Origin: a candidate division Kazan bacterium RIFCSPHIGHO2_01_FULL_44_14
GTDB lineage: Bacteria > Patescibacteriota > Kazan-3B-28
Length of the DNA stretch: 64,000 bases
NCBI GenBank assembly: GCA_001771185.1
Contig: METB01000001.1
Span: forward strand, 94,520-158,519
Reading direction: 5' to 3'
Under the pieces are notes generated by a model. It made no database searches. It had not been told where the DNA came from and saw nothing but the letters and a program-made list of their open reading frames with translations. Positions 305-47,921 of this stretch are shown here, piece by piece (within the stretch, counting starts at the first letter, position 1; the number at the start of each line of letters is the position of its first letter). A program made the translations under genes and the position numbers.

Positions 305-403
305 AATTTGAGGACTACAAATGGATCTGAACGCATCTGGGTCAATTATAGAACCTTATGAGAACCTGTCTATCGGCAGACGGGGAAGCCAAAACCGCTA
401 AAG

Positions 404-1165
404 CTATAAGCTATTGAGCTCTTTATACATTTTAGCCACCTCCTCTGCTATAGATTCATACTCATTTCTGCCCACGACTTCTCTAATCTGGTCAATGTAC
501 CGCGTAGTCAACCTAAGGTGAAACGTTAAACCCAAAAATAAACCCTGTTGCATATAAAGTCCGTTCATCATCTCTGATTCTTTCGGATCCAACATTCCCC
601 TCACCACCATAGGGTTTGGATGATTCAGCCTACTTCCCCAAATATAAGCCTGCCCTATACGAGAAAAATCGAAGTCATTCAAGCAATGCTTATCGTGTAG
701 AGCCTTGAGCATCATATCCGCACTTAGACCCGCCCAACTATGTCTACCGTCCTTCAAATAAGATGGCACTTTTTCATACGACTCTGCCAGAATAGCAGAT
801 GATACGTCCAAATTAAGTGCCTCCTCTTGGTCCTTACCGCCAATCGATTTCAAAAACTCACGATCTTGGGTTAATTGAACCCAAAGATAGTCTTGAAATT
901 CCTTGGCCTTTTTATCTCTACCCTTCATTAACATATATTCAACGGTAAGCGAATACTCGGTTAGCTTGCGAGCCAAGTCTAAAACGCTCGCCGCAGCCTC
1001 CGTATGAGTAGCAAGATAATTGATATCCCTTAGTGCGGAAAAGGACACCCGATATATCCCCAACAGAACAGTCAAAAAATCATCTTGCTCAGTTCTTGCC
1101 CCTTCCGCCAATGGCTGGGTCGCAACCAGTAGTCTAACAAGCAACGACTTGAACCTATTTATCAT
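404..1165 (-). CDS. Hypothetical protein (253 aa), second gene of a two-gene operon; no recognisable domain
   Basis: Long ORF with an 11-nt overlap with the upstream ORF 1155..1886 (operonic). The macro-domain gene lies 100 bp downstream on the same strand. No motif is recognisable by eye. Confidence 0.6.
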   Translation of the reverse strand: MINRFKSLLVRLLVATQPLAEGARTEQDDFLTVLLGIYRVSFSALRDINYLATHTEAAASVLDLARKLTEYSLTVEYMLMKGRDKKAKEFQDYLWVQLTQDREFLKSIGGKDQEEALNLDVSSAILAESYEKVPSYLKDGRHSWAGLSADMMLKALHDKHCLNDFDFSRIGQAYIWGSRLNHPNPMVVRGMLDPKESEMMNGLYMQQGLFLGLTFHLRLTTRYIDQIREVVGRNEYESIAEEVAKMYKELNSL

Positions 1166-1886
1166 TAGTCACGACCTCCGCCACATCTACAAATGGCTCA
1201 ATTCGAAGATGTTGGTAAAGCAAATCTCGTATATCCCCAAAAATCTGATCAAGTGCCCCATCAATCTGAACCTGATTACTGGCTGCTATGCCGATCCATC
1301 GCTTCTGGGCCAATTCAAAAGATTCTACTATTTTACGCTTAAAGTGATCCACTGCTTCGGGTCGCATCCGATCTTTAAATGGTGAACTATCTCCCGATAC
1401 AGTAGCAAACACGCTTGCATCCACAAGATCCGCATCTGCAAACCGCATTCCCGTATGGTGATGCGGAACTCTGCACTCGGCTATCCCATTAAATACCTTA
1501 TAGAGTTGTCCTTTAATATGTTTAAGAGCCACCACCCACTCTTTGCCATTATTGGCCCGTCGTACATCTTTGGTTAGTACATCAAGAAAAGTTTTAACCT
1601 TATCCTTCAAACTATCAACGTCCTCTAGATAAGCATGGAGATGATGTTCGAGTGCCTCTGCACTGCTGATTTGCCCCGACTGATCGGGATAAAACTCGGT
1701 AAAATAAACTTCGTACCTTTTAACTTTTTTCAGAGCTTGGCTCAGAATCATAAGAAGTCCCAAGTACCTCTCCAACTCTCCATCATCCACACCAGTCTTA
1801 TCGATCCTGGTTATATACTGCTTCATTAGACACTCGGGATGAGCATAGACCATAACATCTGCAACTACCTTGTCAAAATTATTCAT
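1155..1886 (-). CDS. Hypothetical protein (243 aa), first gene of the two-gene operon; no recognisable domain
   Basis: Long ORF starting at ATG 1886 (MNNFDKVV...). It overlaps the downstream ORF by 11 nt. It sits inside a defence-island context. Confidence 0.6.
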   Translation of the reverse strand: MNNFDKVVADVMVYAHPECLMKQYITRIDKTGVDDGELERYLGLLMILSQALKKVKRYEVYFTEFYPDQSGQISSAEALEHHLHAYLEDVDSLKDKVKTFLDVLTKDVRRANNGKEWVVALKHIKGQLYKVFNGIAECRVPHHHTGMRFADADLVDASVFATVSGDSSPFKDRMRPEAVDHFKRKIVESFELAQKRWIGIAASNQVQIDGALDQIFGDIRDLLYQHLRIEPFVDVAEVVTNDK

Positions 1887-2010
1887 TTTAATCCTAAGAC
1901 ATATAAAATAGGTAAAACTTAGACCCAGACCAACTATACAGTGCTATCCCACCAGAGATCTGTCAATCACCTCCATAAAGGAGCTGCACAAAAATACAAA
2001 CTATCTATAT

Positions 2011-3180
2011 TCAACGATTTCCTTTTGCTCTATTATGCGTCTTACATAACATCTCACAGTTTTTGGCCGCCGTTTCGCCACCCTTACTCCATGCCGTTAC
2101 ATGATCTGCGTCCATTTCGTCTAACTTCCAAATCTTACTCTTGCTGGCATCATGTCCAATAGCACAATATGGACAGTTTGATTTACCTTGAGCTTCAGCC
2201 CTAGCAGTCTGTGTTGAATAAACAGCCTTCTTGGTCGCCTCATCAAAAACTCGAACATCGATCAATTTTGTGTCAATGGACCCACCGAGAATATACTCAA
2301 AAATGCCTTTGCGATTTTTGATGTACGGATCGCCATAGAGCTTATGCACCTCGGCTGATACTTTGGCTGGGTTGTATGATTTTTTGTGATACTCCTCGTA
2401 AAGTCGTCCCCATTCAAGCCCACGCATTTCGCTTTCTACGTCAGTAAATACGCTAGATACCCAATCAATGACGGTATTAAAATATTTTTTCAGCTCATCA
2501 ATATTTTTGTCTTTGCGATGCTTGCTCATGTAGTCGCCAATATTGCCTTTGCTTACCCAATCAAGAGCACATTCCAAAAATTCTTGCCTGTTGGCACTAC
2601 CTGATACATACGCACTCCATTTTTGAATATTGGCGTTTTGGCTATTACTGAATTCCTCTTTAGCTCTAGTTACGAACGGGCCGGAATACACGGCGTTGAG
2701 TAATTCCTGATTATTGAGCGGAACACCAGCAATATTGATTGTCTTAAACCATTCTTTTATCTGACTTTCTGTCCCTTCACACTCGTAAATGAGCAGTTTC
2801 GTTTCCAAAATTTTGACTTGCTTGTCTTTTGCCATACCGCCATAATATTGCTCCATGCCATTTTCGTCTTTGATGGCAAATTTGTCGGTGATAAATCGTC
2901 CGAGACTAGTGATGCGCTGTTGCCCGTCTAAGACTTCTAGGTTGTCGTCAGAAACTTTGTTGAAATAAATCAATCCTATCGGGTATCCTTTGAGAATTGA
3001 TTCAATAACGGCCATTTCTCTTTTGCCTCCGTCAGAAGCATAGATATAATTACGCTGATACTCTGGCTGAATCGTTAGTTTGCCGGATAAGCCAAACAAA
3101 CCCTTGCCTTCAAGTTCGTTATAGACGAACCCATCACAAATATCTTTGACTGTGGTGCTAGTCTTAAGTGTTGTTTTCAT
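2011..3180 (-). CDS. DUF262 (ParB/Srx-like, DGQQR motif) N-terminal domain fused to a C-terminal HNH nuclease; putative restriction-type endonuclease
   Basis: Motifs [11 protein letters not shown] and [10 protein letters not shown] are the DUF262 QR and DGQQR signatures. The C-terminus CPYCAIGHD...[10 protein letters not shown]...[15 protein letters not shown] is an HNH motif (CxxC...H...N...H). The start lies 4 nt after the upstream methyltransferase stop. Confidence 0.8.
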
Positions 3181-3184
3181 ATTA

Positions 3185-4282
3185 TTATTTCTTACGTCTT
3201 ATAAAAACTCGCTTAAAAGTTTCCTTGCCACTAATATGTGATCCGCGACCGTAAATTCTATTTGGATCTTGATCTATGCCTCGATTCGATCCAAGCAATT
3301 CAAACTGATCTGGATTATATTTATCTAAAAAACTGACAGGAACACCCATCACACCATCATAATCGCTTGGAATGGCATCGGTAAACGGAATTTCAATGGC
3401 ATCGTAGTTATCGTACTTATCATAAGATTTTTTGCCTTTAATCTCTTTGTGCTTGCTGTATTTTAAGTTCTCCTCCATTGTCATAAGTGGCAATATTTGG
3501 TGACGACGCCCATGATCAAGATTGGTAAACCAACAACAGTTTCTGAATTTCACCAAGCCAGTTTCTGGGTCATACACCCCGCCCGCATATTCTCTAGTAA
3601 TAGGCGTAGAAAAATAAGCGTTGCCAGCATTAAAGCCATTTCCTAACCACATTTTATTTTCTTTTATCAATGGAAATATTTCCTTGTAAATAATCGCACT
3701 TAGGTTACCAATGATAACGAATTTTTTATGATACTCAAAAAGCTGCTTCACATATTCACGAAATAGACTGAACGGCGGATTAGTTACCACAATATCGGAT
3801 TGTTCTAGTAATTTTATGCACTCGGGACCTCTAAAATCGCCATCTTTCTCAAGCGGCGTCCATTCATTATTTCTGTTTGCCCTTAACTGTTTGGCAATAT
3901 CTTTCAAGTTGAACTCACCGTCGCCGTCTATGTCCTTCACTTCGTTGATAATAAATTTGTTGGCGGTTACCTTTGGGCGGCCTTTTGCTTTTACAAGCGT
4001 TTTGTCATCACCAAACAAGCCTAATTGCGTGTTAGCAACAGGCGACGGCTTATAACTAGTTGTAATGAGCCGTTTTAATCCAAGCTTATTAAAATTGAGC
4101 ACAAAATAACGAAAAAAATTGCTCTCAAACGGATCATCGCAATTACAATACACCACCTGATCTCGAAACACATTGGGATTATATTCCAGATACGCCGAAA
4201 TCTCTTTTTGGATATCGCTATATTGGGTATAAAACTCATCGTTCTTTACCCTTTTTGCATTCGTAAGATTACTGTTTGCCAT
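3185..4282 (-). CDS. Putative N6-adenine DNA methyltransferase (gamma-class order: FYT motif X, then NPPF motif IV)
   Basis: NDEFYTQ near the N-terminus and IVVTNPPFS (the NPPF catalytic motif) are present. It is immediately upstream of and co-directional with the DUF262-HNH gene. Motif I is atypical ([12 protein letters not shown]), hence the moderate confidence. Confidence 0.65.
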
Positions 4283-4438
4283 AGTACATCCCGATAGTAC
4301 TCCAATATAAAATCCTCTTCTAAAGCCAGTTTTTGACTCCTTTAGTATAACTCAAAATAAGGCTTATTGGGACTGGACTTCGAGCCCCCTTCGGGCATCC
4401 TTACTCTGGTATAGACCGATAGACAAATGGAGGTGAAT

Positions 4439-5776
4439 ATGGCGCAAAACGAAGCGGTTTTAGAGACCCCAGAGGGGACCAGAGAAGCTCCCCAAGCAGA
4501 AGTTGGGAGATACTGCCTCTATGCCCGAAAGTCATCCGAATCGGACGAAAGACAGGCCTTATCCATCGACTCCCAAATCAAAGAGATGATGGCTATCGCC
4601 GAACGGGATGGTATTGAGGTGGTCGAGACAATCAGAGAGAGCCATTCAGCTAAGGATTCCGGCCAAAGACCGGAGTTTATGGAGCTTTTAAGGCGAATCA
4701 GAGAACAAGAGTTCAATGGAATTCTCACTTGGGCTCCCGACAGACTTTCGAGAAATGCAGGGGATTTGGGAGATCTGGTGGATATGATGGACCAAGGATT
4801 GCTGAAACACATCAAGACACCTAGCCAGATATTTAGGAATTCCCCCAATGAGAAATTCCTTTTAATGATTCTGTGCAGTCAGGCAAAGTTGGAAAATGAT
4901 AATCGAGGCATCAATGTAAAACGCGGAATGAAAAATAAATGCGACATGGGTTGGATGCCGTGTCTCCCTCCGCTTGGTTATCTGAACGATAAAGCAAATC
5001 ACACAATCATTGTCGATGCAGAACGAGCTCCGTTTATTAAAGAAGCATTTAATAAAGTCGCCGAGGAAGGCTATACCGGCAGAGCGTTATGGAGTTGGTT
5101 TAATAAAGAAACAGAATTTACAACCAGAGCGGGAAAGAAGATGGCTCTAAGTATGGTTCACAATATGCTGAGAAATCATTTTTACTACGGCCAGTTTATG
5201 CACGGCGGAGTAATGCACCAAGGTAAACATGAACCGCTGATTACAAAAGAGCTGTTTGATAAAGTCAGAGAAGCCATGCAAAAAGGCCCTCGGGGCAGAT
5301 ATGGCGAAAAAATGTTCGCCTTCACTCGAATGATAACCTGCGGAAGATGCGAACTTGGAATAACAGCTGAAGAAAAAGTTAAAAAGCTAAAAAATGGAGA
5401 AGGCCGACGACATGTCTACTACCATTGCAGCGGGTTTGGCAAATATCGATGTAAAGAGGGCTGGATGCGAGAAGCCGACCTTATTGAGCAATTTGTTGAG
5501 CTAATAGATGGAATGGATATCAACCGAATTGGAATGAGAGAGAAACTCCAAGAAGAAATTGAACGATACAATCGCTTCACCACCGGAGTACTCGGTATGA
5601 ATCCCGACACTTCCCCAATTCCCAGAGTAGACCTTAAAATGTACGCGAAATATATCTTGAGAGATGGTAGTCCAGAAGAAAAGCGAGAAATATTAAAGAA
5701 CATCAAAAACAAGGTGGTGCTGCACGATGGAAAACTATCGCTACAAAACACTCCGGAGTTAATTGAGCCCATCTAA
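4439..5776 (+). CDS. Large serine recombinase / serine integrase (resolvase catalytic domain, recombinase domain, zinc-ribbon)
   Basis: YCLYARKSSESDERQALSIDSQ is the resolvase catalytic-Ser motif. The protein is ~445 aa with a Cys-rich region (CGRCE...HCSGFGKYRC). GGAGGTG lies 5 nt before the ATG at 4439; an alternative in-frame ATG is at 4427. Confidence 0.85.
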   Translation: MAQNEAVLETPEGTREAPQAEVGRYCLYARKSSESDERQALSIDSQIKEMMAIAERDGIEVVETIRESHSAKDSGQRPEFMELLRRIREQEFNGILTWAPDRLSRNAGDLGDLVDMMDQGLLKHIKTPSQIFRNSPNEKFLLMILCSQAKLENDNRGINVKRGMKNKCDMGWMPCLPPLGYLNDKANHTIIVDAERAPFIKEAFNKVAEEGYTGRALWSWFNKETEFTTRAGKKMALSMVHNMLRNHFYYGQFMHGGVMHQGKHEPLITKELFDKVREAMQKGPRGRYGEKMFAFTRMITCGRCELGITAEEKVKKLKNGEGRRHVYYHCSGFGKYRCKEGWMREADLIEQFVELIDGMDINRIGMREKLQEEIERYNRFTTGVLGMNPDTSPIPRVDLKMYAKYILRDGSPEEKREILKNIKNKVVLHDGKLSLQNTPELIEPI

Positions 5777-5892
5777 CCCAACCATTGCGAAAAAGTTTAT
5801 AGTCTATGAGAAAAGTGGTTCATGCGCACCAGGAACGGTAATCTAGCTAGAGTAGGCTTACAACTCCCAACGGTATGATTTTGTACGGATAG

Positions 5893-7404
5893 TTATGCCT
5901 CGTTCTCTGGGGATAGTGAAACAAAGAGTTCGTAAAGTTTCTGAAATTTCTCACCAAATATTCGCCCAATCCTATTCCTTCTTATGGCATCCTGCAAATA
6001 CGACTCAGCATATGCTAATTCGGATTTTCGTCCAATGAGTTTCTTGAGTAGTGGCTTGCCAGAAGTTAATTTTAATATAGCAGTGTCGATTTTTGTCTTA
6101 GCCACATTTGACATAGTTTTCCAGACTGGGTCTTGAGACGATGCCATCTTGGATTTAATAGTTGACTGTACATTACTTTTGGTTACCCCCAGTACAGCAG
6201 ATACGATATCTAAATCGTACATAAGACACCCCTCCATGTCATACTGAGCCAACTTAATGAAGTGATTATCTCCTGGAAATTTGTCTGGCTGGTTATCACC
6301 ATCAGTCAAAAAAGAAACATTCGTAATAACAGAGGGTATGGAATTGCTAGCAAATAATTTATAGGCACTTTCTACTCCACCTTTTGCATTGTGTACCTCA
6401 ATCACATCAACAAGCTTTTGTGCACCCGAAATTTTTGCCAATGTCTCGATAACTATTTTATGGATATGGTCTTCTACAAAAACCACATGATTCCCCGATG
6501 GGTCATTAACTATCTTGAATACTCGCGTCCTGAGAGCATCTATTGTTTCTGATGTGGGGTTGCTAGATATTGCAAAGTGTTTAGCCTTACGGTTAATTTC
6601 CAGGAACTTAGAAATATTTTTATAGCCCTCTTCAAACACAATCATTGAATGAGTTGCTACCACAATTTGCTTATCGTATTCTTTGGCGAACCAATTTAAA
6701 TAGTCAAAAAAATACTTCTCGAACGACCAATTCAGATGTATCTCAGGTTCGTCTATAAGAAAAACATCATATTCATCACGTGCTTCATAAAGTTGGAATG
6801 CTAGAGATATGGATTCAGTCTCGCCTACACTCAATTGGTCTGTTGTAACTTTAAGAAAGCCAAACTTTTTTATGACAAAATCAGGAACATCCGCCTCCTC
6901 AAGTTTTAGGTCAACTATCTGATATTCGCTATATAATCGTCTCAGAATATTATTAAACTCTCTTACGGTACGCTTAAGAATGGTTATTTGGTCAACGCCT
7001 TCAGGTGTCACATTGCGCGCTTCGTGATAATGATACAAAACGATATCCGAAAATGGCGGATAGGTTTGATGGGATAGCTCTTCTAGTTTGCGATTATAGG
7101 CATTTTTTAAGTCATCCTTAATCTTACGTTGACTAGAAAATATCTCTTGTACACTTTGCTTAAATTTCCTTATTTCGATGCTTCGACTTGGGCTGTAAAC
7201 GGCAACCCTAAGGCCGGCCTGTCTAGATTGTTGCTCAATCTCAGATAAGAGTTTGCTTTTCCCGGAACCATTAATACCAGAGATAAGATTCAAGTGGGGA
7301 TTAAGATCGACGATTAGCCCATGCAAAAAATCTAACCCCTCGAGGTCTTTATAACCACTTGTAGTAGCACTTGCTAAAAATTTTACCAATCCGTCTTCAT
7401 TCAT
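5893..7404 (-). CDS. OLD-family nuclease (N-terminal ABC-type ATPase, C-terminal TOPRIM), stand-alone (class 1 OLD / GajA-like without an adjacent helicase)
   Basis: Walker A is LISGINGSGKSKLL, signature-like QLSVGE, Walker B VFLIDEPEIHLN. The TOPRIM motifs are HVVFVEDHIHKIVIE (conserved Glu) and SFLTDGDNQ (DxD). No UvrD-like partner gene is adjacent. Confidence 0.8.
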   Translation of the reverse strand: MNEDGLVKFLASATTSGYKDLEGLDFLHGLIVDLNPHLNLISGINGSGKSKLLSEIEQQSRQAGLRVAVYSPSRSIEIRKFKQSVQEIFSSQRKIKDDLKNAYNRKLEELSHQTYPPFSDIVLYHYHEARNVTPEGVDQITILKRTVREFNNILRRLYSEYQIVDLKLEEADVPDFVIKKFGFLKVTTDQLSVGETESISLAFQLYEARDEYDVFLIDEPEIHLNWSFEKYFFDYLNWFAKEYDKQIVVATHSMIVFEEGYKNISKFLEINRKAKHFAISSNPTSETIDALRTRVFKIVNDPSGNHVVFVEDHIHKIVIETLAKISGAQKLVDVIEVHNAKGGVESAYKLFASNSIPSVITNVSFLTDGDNQPDKFPGDNHFIKLAQYDMEGCLMYDLDIVSAVLGVTKSNVQSTIKSKMASSQDPVWKTMSNVAKTKIDTAILKLTSGKPLLKKLIGRKSELAYAESYLQDAIRRNRIGRIFGEKFQKLYELFVSLSPENEA

Positions 7405-7561
7405 TGTTTTATCAATTTGTCACAGCATTAGAATCAATCGACCGGACGCCACCATTCTAACACCAAAAAAGCCCCTTTGAAGGGTCTTCCTTGGAATATA
7501 TTTCTCACGCTTTTTTTATCGAGCTTACTAGGCAAGACGGTCACTTTGCCATTGTAGCTCT

Positions 7562-7635
7562 TGGCTGGGACGGAAGGACTCGAACCTTCGATCATGGGAC
7601 CAGAACCCATTGCCTTACCACTTGGCTACGTCCCA
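7562..7635 (-). tRNA. tRNA-Gln (anticodon CTG)
   Basis: A manual cloverleaf works. The acceptor TGGGACG/CGTCCCA has the U1:A72 pair, the D-stem is GCC/GGC, the anticodon stem is ATGGG/CCCAT with loop TTCTGGT, the T-arm is GAAGG-TTCGAGT-CCTTC, and the 3' end is an encoded GCCA. Confidence 0.8.
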
Positions 7636-7984
7636 CTAATAAGGCGTGAAAAAATAGTTTATCAATAAATTTGGTACGGAACCCGCCTACGCTCTACGAG
7701 CTTCGGAACGGGCAGGCAGGCGCCATCCGTTGTCTTATTTACCCCCGTAGCGAACTTCGCTCTGTTTCGGGGCCACTTGTCTGCCTGCCGATAGGCAGGG
7801 CTACACCCCATCACAATGAGTATTGAGTATAGAGAATTGGGTTATGAGTGTGAAGAGGGGTATCTGGAATTAGTGCAACCCCTCGGTCCTGCTGGACAGC
7901 AGGACTCGGGGAAACAAGGTTTATGTTTTAGTTTCTAGCTAGTCCAATTATCAGACATCTACCATGTCCGAAAGTATAAACCGA

Positions 7985-8299
7985 TTAGTATAGATATATC
8001 AAGACAATGGCAAAGACAGCCAACCAAATCAGAGTCCAGCCCACTAACCACAAGGCCTTGGACCAGTTTTTGTTTAGGGCCAGAAAAATTGGATAACCAA
8101 GCACCGCTCCGGCAGATAATACGGCAGTGATGACAAAAGTTACTGGCATTAAGACAAACCCAGTGGCGTTGGGTTTATCAGCAGTATTAACAAACTTATC
8201 TAGGTTAGTCATAAACCAGGTCCAACCCCAAAGTACGACACCGGCACTAATGGCTTGCCCTAAACCCAAGACCCAAATGGCAGTAGCAGATTTTTTCAT
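7985..8299 (-). CDS. Small hypothetical membrane protein (104 aa, ~3 TM helices)
   Basis: Hydrophobic ORF flanked on both sides by GC-rich palindromic repeat DNA. No homology is recognisable. Confidence 0.45.
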   Translation of the reverse strand: MKKSATAIWVLGLGQAISAGVVLWGWTWFMTNLDKFVNTADKPNATGFVLMPVTFVITAVLSAGAVLGYPIFLALNKNWSKALWLVGWTLIWLAVFAIVLIYLY

Positions 8300-8610
8300 G
8301 TGGCAGATGTGTTAACAATATGTTATCCCTGCCTGCCGGCAGGCTCGAGCCGAAAGCATGTCCTCGCGAAGGCGGGGACGAAGTGCTTAGACACCGGGAA
8401 TCCAGAAAAGAAAAAATAAAGAATGTTTTTGTTTCTGTCTGGATCCCCGCCTTCCTGCCCGAATCGCTACGCCCGCCAGAAATGTTGTATCTACTACGGG
8501 CTGGCGAATCGTTGCGGGCGGGCGCGGGGATGACGGATGAAGAATTTAGTGAAACGCGGCCTTTGGCCTAGATTCTTCGCTTCGCTCAGAATGACAGGTA
8601 AGGGAAAGAG

Positions 8611-9744
8611 CTATTTGAACAAGGAGGTGTAAATTTCTTCAGTATGGTCAATCATTCTGTCGGCTGAAAACTTAGACAAAGTGTTGGCTCCATTTTTGGC
8701 TAATTTGGTTTGGAGTTTTCGGTCATTCAACAGTTTCATTAGCACACCAGCTAACTTTTTCGAGTCCTTTGGTTCCACCAGAAGCCCATTATGATTTTGA
8801 GTGATAATTTCCGGAATTCCGCCAACTCTAGTTGCCACAACTGGGATTTCGGCCTTCATTGCCTCCAAAATCGTAATTCCAAAGGCCTCCGACAACGAGG
8901 GCAGAACAAAGATACGGAAGGTTTTCAGAGCCGGAAGAACATTTCCCATCGACCCAGTAAACACTACTCTATCCTCTAGTCCCGAACTTTTGATTAACTT
9001 TTCTAATTTGAATTTCAATGGGCCCTTACCGACCAGAACCAATTTTACTTTCGGCCATTTTTTCACCATCCGCGCCACCGCCTTAACTAAAGTTGCAGTA
9101 TCTTTGGCGGTGTTGAACGAACCGACTGTGCCAATCACAATGTCATCTGATGTAATGTTAAACTTGTCTTTAAAAGCCTGGATTTCGTCTTGGGTAATCT
9201 TGCGGGCTAGTGGCGTAATCCCGTTATAAATCGTGACGATTTTTTCGGGTTTACTAATTTTTGAATCAATCAGGAATTTGCGAACCGCGTTGCTGACGGC
9301 AATCACTTTGTCGGTTCCACCATCCAACATCCGCATCACACGCAGATGCGTCCAATGTAGAAGTGGATTGGCCAACTTGAACTCGTGAGTATAGGTATGT
9401 TCGGTATGTACTCGTTTAAACGGCATTCCCTTAGAAGCCATCCGACCAATCAAACCCGCCCGCTGCCCATGAGTATGAATGATATCGGGGTCATATTTTT
9501 TCAACAGTTTCGTAACCGCGCTAATTGCTGCCATATCAGCTCGACCCCGCATTGGCACTTGAAAAAACGGGATTTTACGCTTTTTTAACTGTTCGATCAA
9601 CGACCCAGGCGGAGCGATGACTGTAACATTGAATCGATGACTATTAATTCCCGACAGCAATGTTAAAAGATGTCTGGGCGCACCAGTTAAAGAACTATCG
9701 GCAATAATTTCAAAAATACTGATTTTTCCCAGTTTACGCATCAT
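8611..9744 (-). CDS. Glycosyltransferase family 4 (GT-B)
   Basis: C-terminal EAFGITILEAMKAEIPVVATRVGGIPEII, the E-x7-E GT4 motif. Confidence 0.85.
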   Translation of the reverse strand: MMRKLGKISIFEIIADSSLTGAPRHLLTLLSGINSHRFNVTVIAPPGSLIEQLKKRKIPFFQVPMRGRADMAAISAVTKLLKKYDPDIIHTHGQRAGLIGRMASKGMPFKRVHTEHTYTHEFKLANPLLHWTHLRVMRMLDGGTDKVIAVSNAVRKFLIDSKISKPEKIVTIYNGITPLARKITQDEIQAFKDKFNITSDDIVIGTVGSFNTAKDTATLVKAVARMVKKWPKVKLVLVGKGPLKFKLEKLIKSSGLEDRVVFTGSMGNVLPALKTFRIFVLPSLSEAFGITILEAMKAEIPVVATRVGGIPEIITQNHNGLLVEPKDSKKLAGVLMKLLNDRKLQTKLAKNGANTLSKFSADRMIDHTEEIYTSLFK

Positions 9745-15506: not shown

Positions 15507-15517
15507 GGTGAAAAGTT

Positions 15518-15797
15518 AAAAGTTAAAAGTGATAAGTCCTCCTCCGCCTAAAGCTACGGAAGGATCTGTGATGAAAAGTGACGGCATTTATCCTCCTGCC
15601 GTCATCCCGGCAAAGGCCGGGATCGTATAAGATTCTGGATGCGTTCTGCTGTCCAGCAGAACTTACCAGAATGACGGATGTCCCGGCAAGTAATTTTGAA
15701 TGATGAATTTTGAATTTTGAGTGAATAACCCTAATATCTTAATTTTGAAACATTCAGTCATTGGAATTTGATTAGAAATTAGAAATTGGAAATTAAG
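15518..15797 (+). repeat. Copy 2 of the MITE-like repeat, carrying a ~135-bp internal insert rich in palindromes (gttctgctgtccagcagaac, ccagaatgacgg)
   Basis: The 5' part ggtgaaaagttaaaagttaaaagtgataagt and the 3' part aagtaattttgaatgatgaattttgaattttga...cattcagtcattggaatttgattagaaattagaaatt both match copy 1. Confidence 0.65.
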
Positions 15798-16000: not shown

Positions 16001-17419
16001 ATGGCTTATCAAAAGAATTGGCCCACTTTGCTGGCCTATGCTCTCGCGGTAATCGGGTTTTTCGTGGCGGCCGCCTATGCGGTAATGTATGCCACCGGCT
16101 ACCGGATTGATTTTGAGAGCTGGACGGTTCAAAAGACCGGGGTATTGGCGATTACCACTAAACCCAGCGGAGCAACGGTCATTTTGAACGATAGCCAACT
16201 AGCTCGCAAAACCCCGTTTACCCTACGCAATGCCTTACCCGGGCCATATCACATTAAATTAACATTGGCAGGATATCAGCCGTACGAAAAAGATGTGGAG
16301 GTGCTATCGAGCCAAGCCACCGAAGAACACAATGTTGACTTAGTCCTGGCGGAAATAAAATCAACCACCGTAGCCGAAAAGCTGACAGCGGTGTTAAACA
16401 TTGATAATGACATTTGGGCATTTGATTGGAACAAACAGTTTGTTAAAATCGGCGACCCAACTTCTCCATTAGGATTTGATAAAATGCCGACCAATGTTAA
16501 AACCGTCCTGACCCAAGCCACTGGGTTGTATTTGGCCAAGAAACATCCCAATAGCAACGATATAGCTTTGGGAGCGATGGTGGGCAGTAAACGCTGGCTG
16601 GTAATCGCTGATCCATTTGGCTATCGCGGTCAATTATTTGGCGCACCTTTTAATCAAGTCAGTGCAGAAAAATTGTTCTGGATTGATGCCGACCGACTAA
16701 TGTTATTAATCGGTAGTTCAATTTACACCATCGATCTGAATCTTAACCAAACCAATTTGTACGCCAAATCGGTTACTGGGGCTACCTATGATAACGGCCG
16801 GGCTTACTATGTGACTAAAAACTCCCACGGGCAAGTCACTTTGTATAGCGATGGGAATTTGTTTGACGATAAGTCCGCTGAAGTTGCATTCGACAATGTG
16901 CCAGTTGCCAGTAGTCACGAAATTATGGTAACACCCGAAGAAACCATTATTTTACTGACCGACAATCGCTCTAGCCGTGGACTTTGGCTAATCGATAAGG
17001 ACCCTAAAGCCAAGTCGCCAGAATATCAGTTGACCAAATTAGCTAGCGGAGTATATAACACGCTTTATGATTATCTCAACGAACAATTGTTTTTTGTTCA
17101 AGACAAAACTGTCAGCGCCTATGACACCACCAAACGAACGACTCAAAAATTGCGTCAATTCATTGATACCCCAACTTTAGTTGGCAAGCGCAACGAGAGT
17201 GTGTTTATTCAAAGTCAAAATAAGTTTTGGATTGGCGATCCATCTTTAAGCAATGTTTACGAAATTGTCAGCGCAACCAACACGACCCTGCTGTTAGGGT
17301 CGGATTCAAAACGGGTGTGGACACTCAAAGACGGCCAACTGTTAGAGTGGGTATTGCGGAATCCTGGTCAAGGAGTATTTGGAGTGTTGCCTAACTGGGT
17401 CGGCCGAGTCAGCGGTTAA
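16001..17419 (+). CDS. PEGA-domain membrane-anchored protein
   Basis: N-terminal TM helix, then SGATVILNDSQLARKTPFTLRNALPGPYHIKLTLAGYQPYEKDVEV, the PEGA motif. Confidence 0.7.
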   Translation: MAYQKNWPTLLAYALAVIGFFVAAAYAVMYATGYRIDFESWTVQKTGVLAITTKPSGATVILNDSQLARKTPFTLRNALPGPYHIKLTLAGYQPYEKDVEVLSSQATEEHNVDLVLAEIKSTTVAEKLTAVLNIDNDIWAFDWNKQFVKIGDPTSPLGFDKMPTNVKTVLTQATGLYLAKKHPNSNDIALGAMVGSKRWLVIADPFGYRGQLFGAPFNQVSAEKLFWIDADRLMLLIGSSIYTIDLNLNQTNLYAKSVTGATYDNGRAYYVTKNSHGQVTLYSDGNLFDDKSAEVAFDNVPVASSHEIMVTPEETIILLTDNRSSRGLWLIDKDPKAKSPEYQLTKLASGVYNTLYDYLNEQLFFVQDKTVSAYDTTKRTTQKLRQFIDTPTLVGKRNESVFIQSQNKFWIGDPSLSNVYEIVSATNTTLLLGSDSKRVWTLKDGQLLEWVLRNPGQGVFGVLPNWVGRVSG

Positions 17420-21639: not shown

Positions 21640-21877
21640 TGAGCGCTGGGCGACGCTCAACCCGCCGTTACTTTCCTCTTGGGGAAAGTAACCAAAGCCA
21701 TGGCCCTGTTCGCTCGGTCTATGAATAAAGAGCTAAATCTCCTTGGCGTTCTCGCCAAACTCCTCCCCGTGGTCGTCAAACATGCGGCTCCACCCCCGGA
21801 GATTTGGCTATTCATGAACGACCTCGCTCCGAAGGGCCGGTAGAAATATTGCCTGGGAGTGAATTATACAGTAACCT

Positions 21878-22204
21878 GTGGGTGTCTTGATGTGGCTTGA
21901 AAATTTGGAGGTAATTGTGATGGAAACGGCTGGAACAACTATGCCGTCTGAAGATCTGTCGTGGGATGAGAGATGGGCAATGGGGTTATGGCGCCTTTGC
22001 GAGTGGCTAAACAATGATTTGCCCCTAATCGCCAATCGCTTAATATCCAAAGCCATATCCATTTTGGGATGCTGGCTGGGTGTGGCAATTGGCTTGCTTC
22101 TACGAATCACGGGGGTCAGCTTCACGATAGTAATAATCATAATTTGGGTGGCAACTCTAATTATAGCCATTTCCTTATACCCCCCAGAGGACAACTATTG
22201 CTGA
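21878..22204 (+). CDS. Small hypothetical membrane protein (108 aa)
   Basis: ORF with 2 TM segments; one of three consecutive small + strand membrane ORFs in different frames. It could be a gene fragment. Confidence 0.3.
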   Translation: MGVLMWLENLEVIVMETAGTTMPSEDLSWDERWAMGLWRLCEWLNNDLPLIANRLISKAISILGCWLGVAIGLLLRITGVSFTIVIIIIWVATLIIAISLYPPEDNYC

Positions 22205-22274
22205 AATCTTTGTTACTAGTGCTTTGTTTTGAATTTGCGAAACTTCGCGTTCAGAAACCTTGGAGGTGAGTTGA

Positions 22275-22550
22275 GTGAAGAAAGTTTTAGTTTCCCTAGT
22301 GAAGTGGCTGGTGCTAGTTCCCCTTTCCGTTGCCACAATTGCCATAGTCGGTGTTTTTACCGGAATTATGGTCTACCTTGGCGGGAACGCAGTCATCAGC
22401 ATCTGCCAGTACCCGCCACAGTCGATAGACGCCTGGGGATGGGGATTTAGTTTGTCTCTAGCGCTGCTTCTGTTGGCCGGTGCAAGTTATGGCATCTCTA
22501 CGTTCTGCGAGTTTGCGCCAAGGATGGCAGTAAACCTGGAGTCGCTTTGA
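22275..22550 (+). CDS. Small hypothetical membrane protein (91 aa)
   Basis: ORF with 2-3 TM helices. No homology is recognisable. Confidence 0.3.
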   Translation: MKKVLVSLVKWLVLVPLSVATIAIVGVFTGIMVYLGGNAVISICQYPPQSIDAWGWGFSLSLALLLLAGASYGISTFCEFAPRMAVNLESL

Positions 22551-22600
22551 AGCAGTCCTTATTATTAAGTCTCAACCATCGAAATAGGAGGTGATGGGTT

Positions 22601-22885
22601 GTGAGAATGTCTGGCAAGCAAGAAAGCCCTGTTGCAAGAATGGAACGGTTGGCCAAACGGCTTCGACTTTTCTACTGGGTAGCGATCACGTTGCGCAACA
22701 TCATGTTTTGGACGATGCTGATTCGGATAACTAGCCTCGTACTAGTAGTTACCGATCACGCATCCCCAACAACCGTTACGTCATTAGTTCAGCTGAATGT
22801 GTCACACGCCCTTTCCTTCCTAATCATGGCAGGATTGGCTGCCGTGATTAAGCGTACCTTGGGAGACGAATTTACCCCCGGTTAA
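22601..22885 (+). CDS. Small hypothetical membrane protein (94 aa)
   Basis: ORF with TM helices. It ends inside a strong GC hairpin (22874..22900). Confidence 0.3.
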   Translation: MRMSGKQESPVARMERLAKRLRLFYWVAITLRNIMFWTMLIRITSLVLVVTDHASPTTVTSLVQLNVSHALSFLIMAGLAAVIKRTLGDEFTPG

Positions 22886-22900
22886 AACCCGGGGGTTTAA
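22874..22900 (+). terminator. Terminator-like GC hairpin
   Basis: acccccgg-ttaaaac-ccgggggt is an 8-bp G/C stem, followed by ttaaatt, a weak U-run. Confidence 0.45.
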
Positions 22901-22976
22901 ATTACCCCCCCCTTGACCCCAACCCCCAGATACGCTAATCTGGCAAAGTAGTAATTTGATGCTTCCCCCTATTTTA

Positions 22977-23062
22977 TGGGGTCCCCGAAATGGTCTAATT
23001 CCGATGAACAGAGAAATGAACATTTTGGGGAAGAGGAGAAATCCTTGAGCATCAAAAGCGCC
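22977..23062 (+). ncRNA. Conserved ~85-nt structured element, copy 1 (second copy at 32946..33030); putative small RNA or cis-regulatory leader upstream of rpmA
   Basis: gggGtccccgaaatggtctaattccgatgaacagagaaatgaacattttgggga... aligns with the copy at 32946. A 10-bp stem ccccgaaaug / cauuuugggg is preserved in both copies through a G-C to G-U change. Confidence 0.4.
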
Positions 23063-23108
23063 ATGTCAGCTTGCCTGACACAAGCGTTAAAGCGAAAGGA
23101 TTTGGACG

Positions 23109-23381
23109 ATGGCTCATGTAAAAGCGGCCGGGACATCTAAAAACCTGAAGGACTCCAAGCCAAAAATGCTCGGGGTCAAAATCTATGGCAACCAATCGGT
23201 AAAGACCGGTGATATTATCATTCGCCAACGCGGTCAGAAATATCGCTCTGGTGAAAATACCCAGATGGGTAAAGACCATACAATTTTCGCGATGAAGCCG
23301 GGCAAGGTGAACTTTAAAGTTCACCGGGTACGCAAAGATGGGATTCGGACGGCGACGGCAATGTTTGTGAGTGTACAATAG
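23109..23381 (+). CDS. rpmA: 50S ribosomal protein L27
   Basis: MAHVKAAGTSKNLKDSKPKMLGVKIYGNQ...RQRGQKYRSGENTQMGKDHTIFA matches the L27 family. Confidence 0.9.
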   Translation: MAHVKAAGTSKNLKDSKPKMLGVKIYGNQSVKTGDIIIRQRGQKYRSGENTQMGKDHTIFAMKPGKVNFKVHRVRKDGIRTATAMFVSVQ

Positions 23382-31066: not shown

Positions 31067-31354
31067 CTAGCGAAGCGTCATGACATCTTTCATCAACGGG
31101 TTCACACTTTGTATTAATTTCAACTTTTTCGCACGTGTCCAGCCCTTAATCTTTTTTTCAGCAGTAATAGCTTCCGTTGGACTTGGGAATTCTTGAGACC
31201 AAATTATCTTATATAACCGATACCGACCAGAAAACGACTTTGCATTGTTGGTTTTATGTTCGTAGATACGTCTCTCGGGATTATTTGTAATACCAGTATA
31301 TAAAACATTGTTGTTATAATTCGTAGCAATATAGACATACCATGTTTTGTTCAT
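31067..31354 (-). CDS. Small GIY-YIG domain protein
   Basis: WYVYIATNYNNNVLYTGITNNPERRIYEH is a GIY-YIG motif. The gene is inserted between pheT and pheS. Confidence 0.7.
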   Translation of the reverse strand: MNKTWYVYIATNYNNNVLYTGITNNPERRIYEHKTNNAKSFSGRYRLYKIIWSQEFPSPTEAITAEKKIKGWTRAKKLKLIQSVNPLMKDVMTLR

Positions 31355-32487: not shown

Positions 32488-32850
32488 CTATTCTACTTTA
32501 ATCTTAAAATAAACTTCTAGCAGTAAACCAATCACTACAACCATCACGATATTCCACCAAGCCAGGACATTAAGCCACTGGAGAATTAGAACGCCAATAC
32601 CAGCCAAACCTAACAGCGCACCATGACGCAGAGCGGTCCAAAATCGCTTAGCCCCAGTCAACCGAGTGTATAAAGCGTACAAAACTAAGGTGAATCCCCC
32701 AACCATTGTTACCCCCAAACTGATTAGGAACAGAACTAATCCGACATAGCCAACCGTGGTGGGGTCAAAATAAATCAGCACCAAACTCCAGGCAATGATC
32801 GTCAGACCGGTAGTGATGGCTGTACCGATTAAATAACTAGTAACAGGCAT
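32488..32850 (-). CDS. Hypothetical membrane protein (120 aa, 4 TM)
   Basis: Hydrophobic ORF 12 nt downstream of pheS. Confidence 0.5.
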   Translation of the reverse strand: MPVTSYLIGTAITTGLTIIAWSLVLIYFDPTTVGYVGLVLFLISLGVTMVGGFTLVLYALYTRLTGAKRFWTALRHGALLGLAGIGVLILQWLNVLAWWNIVMVVVIGLLLEVYFKIKVE

Positions 32851-32945
32851 AACCTAAGTATATCTGAAATCAAAAAAGCCACGCCACTAGCGTGGCTTAT
32901 AATTATCAGATTTACTCTTGAAACTGTGGGCTAGTTCTCTTGATT

Positions 32946-33030
32946 GGGACCCCGAAATGGTCTAATCCCGATGAGCAGAGGAATGAATATTTTGGGGAGA
33001 AGGAAAAACAATTGAGTGACAAAAGCATCC
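32946..33030 (+). ncRNA. Conserved ~85-nt structured element, copy 2
   Basis: gggaccccgaaatggtctaatcccgatgagcagaggaatgaatattttggggagaaggaaaaa aligns with 22977..23062. It precedes a ~480-bp ORF-free region. Confidence 0.4.
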
Positions 33031-33503
33031 CGGCGAGCCGAGATAGCGTAACACGAAATTGTTTGGATATAAAATAAGGGGTCATACAGGCGCCCTAAAA
33101 TAAAAAATTAAATGGCGTGATGACCCCTTAAGGTGCAAACACCGAACCGTCCCGCCGACGCAACTGACCAGCAGTCACTATCGAAAAGTTTTTGGATGAA
33201 GAACAAAACGAATTTTGTTTTTATTTTTCCAACACGGGACAGTGTCGGAAAGCGAAGCACCACTGGGGGGAGTGATACCTCGCTTCCCGACACTCTCGCT
33301 AATACTTGTTGTCAAAGGCCTTCACCAAATTATATCACTGTACCACAAGCGAAACCCTTCGTCAATACTCCTAGCCAGTAAAGCCGATATTAGTGGCTTC
33401 TGGAGCACAAAGTTTTTTAGTTATCCCCACCCAGTAGAAGATATTGGATGGCACTTTGTGCCAATCAGAGAAATCCAATATACTCTACCAGGTTTAACCC
33501 GTT

Positions 33504-35883: not shown

Positions 35884-36085
35884 TCTTAATTTCTAATTTC
35901 GAATCAAATCCCAATGACTGAATGTTTCAAAATTAAGATATTGAGATATTGATTCAAAATTCAAAATTCATCATTAAAAATTACTTGCTGGAACATTACA
36001 ACTTTTCATCGCAGATCCTTCCGTAGTTCTGCCGTACGGCAGAACGAAGGAGGACTTTTCACCTATCACTTCCCTCATTTGTCAT
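35884..36085 (-). repeat. Copy 3 (inverted) of the MITE-like repeat, with a palindromic insert ccgtagttctgccgtacggcagaacgaagg
   Basis: Its reverse complement matches aagtaatttttaatgatgaattttgaattttga...cattcagtcattgggatttgattcgaaattagaaatt and ...gtgataggtgaaaagt. Confidence 0.65.
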
Positions 36086-36108
36086 TTGTCATTTGTCATT
36101 TGTCATTT
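36081..36108. repeat. (tgtcatt)x4 perfect heptanucleotide microsatellite
   Basis: tgtcatttgtcatttgtcatttgtcatt lies immediately upstream of the cdaR stop / MITE end. Confidence 0.9.
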
Positions 36109-47788: not shown

Positions 47789-47921
47789 ATATTGATTATA
47801 ACAAAGCTTATCACGATGTATATGGAATTTGGCAGGGGCCATCCTACGCTCTAATGAGCTACGGAATGACAATTCCCTACAACCGTTCCATAGTTCTGCC
47901 AAATGGCAGAACGACGGACGG

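Follow-up and report, generated by a model that had tools for sequence, protein, structure and literature searches.

What kind of element stands directly before rpmA, the gene for ribosomal protein L27, and appears a second time in the same window, a stretch of 64,000 nt analyzed here as a whole? The original prediction described a hairpin-bearing segment at both places and offered three readings: a small RNA, a ribosomal-protein leader, or the end of a larger non-coding element. We find that both belong to an uncatalogued family of structured RNAs of ~130 nt, which are read from the plus strand; the DNA comes from a bacterium of candidate division Kazan (CPR/Patescibacteria).

Two Copies in the Window

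Copy 1 occupies positions 22978–23108 (plus strand, 131 nt) and copy 2 positions 32945–33069 (plus strand, 125 nt). Both are present where they had been predicted, but their right ends had been drawn too short, since homology and structure reach 23108 and 33069. The ~85 nt said to be shared by both loci do align without gaps, although with an identity of 79% (69 of 87 positions) and not ~85%; over the full 131-nt element, the two copies are 73% identical. The window contains the 25-nt core CCCCGAAATGGTCTAATYCCGATGA exactly two times, whereas zero occurrences are expected from 100 shuffles.

The predicted 10-bp stem CCCCGAAAUG/CAUUUUGGGG was found in copies 1 and 2. The C-to-U change in copy 2, which turns the closing G-C pair into G-U, is real but weak as the covariation signature it was taken for; strong covariation is found in the helices P2, P2a, and P3, outside the first description. 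The tail TTGAG..CAAAAGC is indeed common to both copies, and the two distances given earlier agree with ours: from position 23062 to the L27 start codon there are ~47 nt (~50 nt predicted), and the ORF-free segment that follows copy 2 measures ~470 nt (~480 bp predicted).

Anatomy of the Element

The element has two domains, a long P1 hairpin and a P2-P2a-P3 arm with conserved junctions, and between them lies a purine-rich, Shine-Dalgarno-like linker. From the 5′ end, the order is GGGG-N, P1, linker, P2, G-A step, P2a, J1, P3, J2, the return strands of P2a and P2, and the tail GACG. In P1, a basal stem of 10 bp is separated by GUCUA and the opposing GAA from an inner stem of 5 bp, which carries a variable tip; P2 is 7–9 bp long across the members and P2a is 3 bp long. 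Among the unpaired nucleotides, UCUA, the purine-rich linker (A)AGAGGAG, the G-A steps, J1 (C)AAWA, and J2 GUWAA are conserved, as are loops of the CUUG type. The segmentation was made by hand and verified base by base against the sequences.

Copy 1 scores 125.5 bits with our covariance model R1, and its minimum free energy (MFE) fold has the same architecture (z = −3.05). Its P1 hairpin (22983–23030, plus strand, as are all parts given here) is built from a basal stem (22983–22992 with 23021–23030), GUCUA (22993–22997) opposite GAA (23018–23020), an inner stem (22998–23002 with 23013–23017), and a variable apical loop. The linker AAGAGGAG (23031–23038), which the alignments show to be kept in all copies, leads into the arm (23039–23103), where P2 pairs 23039–23046 with 23096–23103, the G-A steps lie at 23047–23048 and 23094–23095, and P2a pairs 23049–23051 with 23091–23093; J1 (23052–23057), the P3 hairpin (23058–23085), and J2 (23086–23090) are enclosed by P2a. 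The tail is GGACG (23104–23108), the family consensus being GACG at 0–2 nt before the downstream gene.

In copy 2 (R1 107.3 bits; MFE z = −3.21, stability being higher in sense than in antisense), P1 spans 32950–32997 (32950–32959 with 32988–32997, inner stem 32965–32969 with 32980–32984), and the arm spans 33006–33064, with P2 at 33006–33013 and 33057–33064, P2a at 33016–33018 and 33052–33054, and P3 at 33025–33047. Its tail has degenerated to GGAUA, and a same-strand gene is absent downstream.

At locus L033 of a relative, the first base of GUCUA and the last base of GAA change together from G·A to C-G, a change that suggests three extra pairs with a UA bulge and seems to fit such an arrangement better than the K-turn or sarcin-ricin motif that had been considered by eye for the P1 internal loop. 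The tip of P1 is a hot spot: loci L014 and L015 differ there at 9 of 20 positions and are ~97% identical elsewhere. Two tip types, GACRAANGRAG and GAUGRAYAGAG, recur across loci, possibly of more than one genome. A comparison of the variable apical loop with the upstream and downstream sequence gave no consistent pairing target.

Covariation and Strand

Ten full-length instances, several of them closely related, were found in at least five Kazan-group lineages of the Candidate Phyla Radiation (CPR), together with one variant that has P1 only. These further copies and the structural conservation in relatives back the predicted functional RNA structure on the plus strand, and covariance across relatives was one of the checks that the prediction itself had named.

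A structural alignment of nine instances with 36 proposed pairs was made by hand to fit the structure, so that the following figures are somewhat inflated: 97.3% of the cells are paired, compared with 76% in shuffles (0 of 500 shuffles reached the observed value); 20 pairs are changed on both sides, a number also reached by none of 500 shuffles; and the covariation score is 0.59, compared with 0.21 in shuffles. As a control, the partners were slid by 1–3 columns, whereupon 35–50% of the cells were paired. The single-sequence MFE folds of four members independently give the same architecture. P2 reads AAAUCCUU/AAGGAUUU in copy 1 and AAACAAUU/AAUUGUUU in copy 2, with every varying position covarying, across loci as well; P2a changes from GC(A)/(A)GC to GUG/CAC; and P3 forms a hairpin in both copies from unrelated sequences. 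In L033, the basal stem of P1 is fully covaried.

Read on the plus (sense) strand, the alignment contains G·U in 16 cells at 8 positions and C·A, which corresponds to G·U on the antisense strand, in 3 cells, and by MFE three of four members fold clearly more stably in the sense direction. Neither a conserved reading frame nor a conserved start codon was found on either strand across the members. From the G·U bias, the sense-strand stability, and the broken frames described below, it follows that the element is an RNA structure read from the plus strand. A minus-strand RNA or terminator made of P3 and CUUUUG was also considered and rejected, given the 16-to-3 ratio of G·U in favor of the plus strand and the short U-run.

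ORFs are listed across both copies on both strands, and four members start with AUGGGG, which would suit a short peptide gene (an ATG-GGG frame on the plus strand, or ORFs of 55–57 aa on the minus strand); the similarity could otherwise stem from a duplication that is neutral or due to chance. However, the frames are broken by stops or a frameshift in L015, L025, L011, L014, and L016, the compensatory changes in the helices would be non-synonymous, and zero chance matches are expected; the shuffles, the covariation, and the broken frames refute both, and we leave them practically no probability.

Comparison with Known RNA Families

The Rfam/Infernal scan called for in the original prediction yielded no family for the element in Rfam 15, a set of 4227 models that includes riboswitches, ribosomal-protein leaders, self-cleaving ribozymes, SRP, 6S, tmRNA, RNase P, Drum, and raiA. 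At the gathering threshold, only 3 tRNAs were found in the whole window; at E ≤ 10, the only matches overlapping the element in both copies and five other loci (seven instances) were chance-level microRNA and sRNA matches, far below the thresholds. No T-box or riboswitch matched at E ≤ 10, and the self-cleaving ribozymes (hammerhead, HDV-like, twister, pistol, hatchet) gave no Rfam match. A fixed cleavage site making mature ends does not fit either, since the spacing from GACG to the gene varies from 0 to 2 nt. Likeness to SRP, tmRNA, RNase P, 5S, HDV-like, and hairpin-ribozyme RNAs, judged by eye against consensus sequences, was dropped, Rfam being negative. We did not find a description of the element in the literature.

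With riboswitch and T-box leaders, the element shares its size (~130 nt), conserved aptamer-like helices that covary around invariant junction nucleotides, the 5′ leader position, and, in copy 1, a helix that overlaps the ribosome-binding site. It differs from them in that neither a terminator/antiterminator nor a conserved alternative pairing could be found: no terminator follows the element, its downstream genes are heterogeneous, and the alternative hairpin GAGGA-GAAA-UCCUU occurs in copy 1 only. To our knowledge, tRNAs are controlled by no known riboswitch class. Having no expression platform and no coherent regulon, the element cannot be assigned to the riboswitches.

Relatives and Genomic Contexts

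A pattern scan of metagenomes gave five true homologues (L011, L014, L015, L016, and L025); L007 has a P1 variant. The source samples are groundwater metagenomes. With the R1 model, a further, diverged copy was recognized in L033 immediately in front of rpmA (39.6 bits, E = 2e-8), along with two copies in a tRNA cluster near alaS (L114), which belongs to the same species as the window or to a sister species. The element is thus multi-copy, with two copies in the window and two more in this cluster. Of the latter, the copy at 16981–17111 scores 150 bits with R1, and the variant at 16677–16770 keeps only P1 and the linker, its P3 being replaced by a hairpin related to short GTAG repeats. No copies were found at the three tRNAs of the window or at the EF-Tu, S10, spc, and alpha operons in the window and its flanks, and a covariance-model scan of 10 kb beyond each window end gave zero copies. 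The exact P1 pattern had 0 matches in 185,579 species genomes, so that in this form the element is absent from the GTDB representatives, and a scan of viral contigs with the P1 pattern gave chance matches only. Presence is sporadic among close relatives and differs at orthologous loci.

The P1 variant lies on a low-coverage contig (L007 1–1768), in which the 3′ end of alaS is joined to the variant and then to the rpmA region of the window. We rejected it as a third copy after alaS: at the true alaS locus (L114), ftsA follows alaS and the element is absent there, so that L007 is probably an assembly chimera or a recombinant formed via the repeat.

In five loci, the 3′ end of the element (GACG) lies 0–2 nt from the start of the downstream gene. 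In L015, an 11/12 promoter match is followed by 25 nt, the element, 1 nt, and tRNA-Lys(UUU); in L016, the obg stop codon is followed by 7 nt, the element, 1 nt, and tRNA-Ala(CGC). In L014, the element begins 37 nt after tRNA-Gly and is separated by 19 nt from a tRNA-like minihelix that ends in CCA, behind which comes a terminator. The L114 copy at 16981–17111 is antisense to a run of tRNA genes; a convergent tRNA-Arg(CCG) has its CCA end 1 nt from the 3′ end of the copy, and a divergent tRNA-Lys(CUU) lies 66 nt from the 5′ side of the copy. L011, like copy 2, has no same-strand gene downstream, and L011 and L014 have only hairpins after the element. MALAT1-mascRNA (PMC8457004) is an example of an RNA whose end RNase P defines at a neighboring tRNA or tRNA-like structure; similarly, a predicted RNase P cut would release the element with a defined 3′ end where it lies within 1 nt of the 5′ end of tRNA-Lys or tRNA-Ala. 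The rpmA-linked copies differ from this case in having no tRNA-like structure downstream.

Such contexts would also suit a stand-alone, trans-acting small RNA, that is, a protein- or RNA-binding scaffold with several paralogues, whose 3′ end is set by a neighboring structured RNA. Having no terminator of its own, it would depend on a tRNA, either in sense and cut by RNase P or in antisense, or on a hairpin, and its fusion to rpmA would reflect promoter sharing in a compact genome. In keeping with this, the element lies in both orientations relative to tRNAs and also where a same-strand gene is missing downstream, there are several paralogues per genome, and a stable helix begins 0–19 nt downstream of every non-rpmA copy. 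The sequence of P1 is almost invariant between organisms with completely different P2 and P3, which suggests a common partner. A free small RNA, however, leaves unexplained why the element meets the rpmA ATG flush in two distant lineages, with the Shine-Dalgarno sequence embedded in P2, and why the GACG tail is degenerate exactly in copy 2, where the gene is missing, and in L025, where it is mutated and the downstream tRNA-Lys gene carries an insertion. Moreover, when the promoter upstream of each copy was tested, it was significant only in L015 and at rpmA (8/12, copy 1). We regard a trans-acting role as possible but doubtful.

REP/BIME repeats and the IS200/IS605-derived PATEs are intergenic, multi-copy, hairpin-rich units. 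The element resembles them in all three respects, in the near identity of some copies (>95%, with sharp ends, at three loci: L014; L015/L025; L114 16981–17111), and in a presence that varies between relatives at orthologous loci. If it were a non-autonomous mobile or repeat DNA of this type, tending to land beside tRNA genes, its hairpins would act as ssDNA or as generic transcript structure; copies do abut tRNA gene ends in both orientations, with pieces of tRNA close by (L014, L011), and the short GTAG-plus-palindrome hairpins of the same genomes do share a UAGUUC..GAACGA submotif with P1. The element is nevertheless much larger and more complex than such repeats, with strand-biased G·U and with unpaired junctions, G-A steps, and CUUG-type loops that stay conserved while the helices covary. 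Copies 1 and 2, which belong to one genome, differ by compensatory and not random changes, and at rpmA vertical inheritance has carried the copy to deep divergence without loss of its structure. No terminal inverted repeats, target-site duplication, or constant flanking tetranucleotide or motif were seen at the copy flanks, and no transposase domain was found among the called genes at the loci around the copies or at the window-flank loci; the latter contain only a serine recombinase, in a restriction/defense island ~17 kb from copy 1. As transposase, target motif, and terminal repeat were not seen at these loci, assignment to the REP or PATE class fails, and we judge the mobile-repeat explanation unlikely.

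Several other repeats and insertions were recorded in these genomes. The short hairpin repeats have the form CAGAUCCUUCC-GUAG-UUCUGCC..GGCAGAAC-GAAGGAGG, are flanked by ACUUUUCAYC, and are REP-like (GTAG plus palindrome); they lie at 35997–36070 (plus), 15513–15579 (minus), and 47886–47917 (plus) in the window and in two copies at ~7030–7240 of L110. Just downstream of one of them, a perfect tandem repeat, (TCATTTG) × 4.9, occupies 36075–36108. The defense/restriction island extends over ~400–9200 of the window and encodes a serine recombinase, an EcoRI-type methylase, GmrSD/HNH, and an AAA ATPase. L025 755–1123 contains a tRNA-Lys-like gene with an insertion of ~36 nt in the D-loop region and a GIY-YIG ORF flanked by 67-nt direct repeats of the 5′ part of the tRNA; in the window, a small GIY-YIG ORF lies between pheT and pheS (31067–31354, minus). 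The minihelix of L014 (8025–8075), GUGGGGAUAC..GUAUCCCAC-UCCA, repeats the acceptor end of the upstream tRNA-Gly, and the motif CAGUGGGGAUACACUUC recurs in L015 at ~1080–1110 (minus).

The rpmA Locus

The rpmA gene (23109–23381, plus) encodes L27 of 90 aa, as identified by Pfam PF01016 and homologues; candidate division Kazan bacterium GW2011_GWA1_50_15 has an L27 with 92% identity to it, and the other best matches are likewise from Patescibacteria. The promoter TTGACC-17 nt-TAATCT (22913–22941, plus), with a score of 8/12, lies ~36 nt before the element and is conserved in relatives with or without it. Copy 1 ends 0 nt before the rpmA ATG and the L033 copy 2 nt before. L033 has the same promoter and the same synteny, SHMT-methylase-rpmA-pyrG, and every helix is kept there despite divergence; an AAGTAGTWAT..TGA segment ahead of the element is also common to both. 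In copy 1, the Shine-Dalgarno sequence of rpmA, AAGGA, lies 8 nt before the ATG within the 3′ strand of P2, AAGGAUUU, which ends 5 nt before the ATG. Embedding of the Shine-Dalgarno sequence in P2 is confined to the window lineage, and P2 of the L033 copy lacks one.

In L035 and L040, what is retained is CGTAAAAGCGAAAGGATTTAGGCA-ATG alone, the counterpart of J2, of the P2a and P2 3′ strands, and of the tail in copy 1. When 19 rpmA loci of CPR bacteria and 4 loci from the closest L27 relatives were scanned with the covariance model, L033 alone was positive. In the closest relatives, L110 (L27 97% identical), L026 (92%), L112, L113, and L031, the same promoter precedes a leader with GATACT-type repeats, and the element is absent. 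We infer from these comparisons that the element is probably old at rpmA and has been repeatedly lost or truncated there.

In L026, L031, L110, L113, and L037, ~60 nt before rpmA carry the repeats (C)TTGATACT / CTAGATACT or UCUCUA and lack a Shine-Dalgarno sequence; this element-free leader may be a second leader type. The region from the methylase gene to the rpmA promoter (~21640–22910) is hypervariable among strains (compared with L008, L009, and L110): in the window, it contains small ORFs without a Pfam match, and in close relatives other short ORFs or hairpin repeats. In L033, two tRNA matches of 118 and 137 nt (5718–5835 and 5859–5995, plus) lie 1.2 kb upstream of the element; they probably contain introns.

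The ribosomal-protein leader proposed originally is correct in so far as copy 1 sits in the 5′ UTR of rpmA. The L21 leader (RF00559) is found upstream of rplU-rpmA in Firmicutes. Like the ribosomal-protein leaders, the element can form a structured 5′ UTR directly before a ribosomal-protein gene, with a helix that involves the ribosome-binding region (the 3′ strand of P2), but only copy 1 and the L033 copy are of this kind. One might suppose an autoregulatory operator, at which L27 or another ribosomal protein would bind and repress rpmA translation; the abutment of both copies on the ATG, the Shine-Dalgarno sequence in P2, and a position held over a long evolutionary span would agree with it. 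Most members, however, lie away from ribosomal-protein genes, adjoining tRNA-Lys, tRNA-Ala, a tRNA cluster (in antisense), and an unrelated RNA gene, and none was found before the S10, spc, alpha, or EF-Tu operons, the large ribosomal-protein operons in or next to the window. In addition, the ribosomal-protein leaders of Rfam 15 show no match in sequence or structure. Since its gene set is not restricted to that of a regulating ribosomal protein, the element does not belong to this class, and autoregulation by L27 appears very unlikely.

Surroundings of Copy 2

Copy 2 is flanked by two minus-strand genes. On its left is the start of one at 32488..32850; on its right is the 3′ end of an RNA gene, a conserved gene of ~260 nt (33072–33332, minus; fold z = −6.7) that fills the ORF-free segment. 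Its promoter (33365–33337, minus) is TTGACG-17-TACAGT, compared with TTGACA-17-TACAAT in L029. Positions 33087–33430 of the window are 82% identical in nucleotides to a locus of a Kazan genome (L026), and the flanking proteins are only ~55% identical. The RNA contains a 27-bp hairpin with an invariant CCCCCC loop, its G·U pairs form only on the minus strand, and it ends near 33072 in a terminal hairpin and a U-rich tract, this terminator hairpin meeting the 3′ end of copy 2. No Rfam family matched the RNA of 33072–33332. L026 has the RNA gene without the element; therefore, the ORF-free segment is a separate gene converging on copy 2, and the suggestion that copy 2 is the conserved end of a larger non-coding element has to be abandoned. 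The conserved single-stranded 5′ GGGG of the element might be a target of the CCCCCC loop.

Proposed Model

Of the known kinds of RNA, the element appears to work most like a structured 5′ leader. We propose that it is a new structured leader-type module, which acts in cis and controls or organizes the 5′ end of the RNA that follows; we give this reading a probability of about 0.4. At rpmA, the formation of P2 would hide or position the ribosome-binding site, because the 3′ strand of P2 holds the Shine-Dalgarno sequence and ends so close to the ATG, and the state of P2 would presumably be set by a protein or ligand on the conserved surfaces of P1 or J1/J2. Alternatively, closure of the arm would bring the AGGAG of the linker beside the ATG, where it could serve as a bridged Shine-Dalgarno sequence. 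In front of a tRNA, the module would be transcribed together with it and then be cut off by RNase P.

The leader model is favored by the flush junctions, 0–2 nt at rpmA and 1 nt at tRNA-Lys (L015) and tRNA-Ala (L016); by the conserved rpmA promoter upstream of copy 1 and of the L033 copy and the 11/12 match in L015; and by the persistence of the L033 copy at the syntenic locus with its structure kept, as well as of the 3′ strand of the arm before the ATG in L035 and L040. It is opposed by copy 2, L114, L011, and L014, which have no same-strand gene directly after the element, by the restriction of the Shine-Dalgarno sequence in P2 to the window lineage, and by close relatives (L27 97% and 92% identical) that manage without the element; moreover, neither a terminator nor a conserved alternative pairing was found that could serve as an expression platform. 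A bolder version, in which the element represents a new class of regulatory or catalytic RNA of some CPR bacteria, a ligand or protein sensor or a processing ribozyme that would gate both tRNA 5′-end maturation and L27 translation, seems to us quite unlikely.

Significance

The catalogue of non-coding RNAs from the Candidate Phyla Radiation is very short, and Kazan has no cultured representative. Here, a well-supported structured RNA family is kept in several copies in a reduced genome, flush against core translation genes, and the covariance model R1 provides a ready probe for CPR genomes and metatranscriptomes. Even if the element were a domesticated repeat, it would account for assembly joins of the L007 kind and for the differences between strains in the region before rpmA. 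If it regulates its neighbors or is co-processed with them, it would show how minimal cells coordinate the supply of tRNA and ribosomal protein, and, should the sensor or processing-RNA version be true, it would mean RNA-level control of the translation apparatus in organisms with very few transcription factors.
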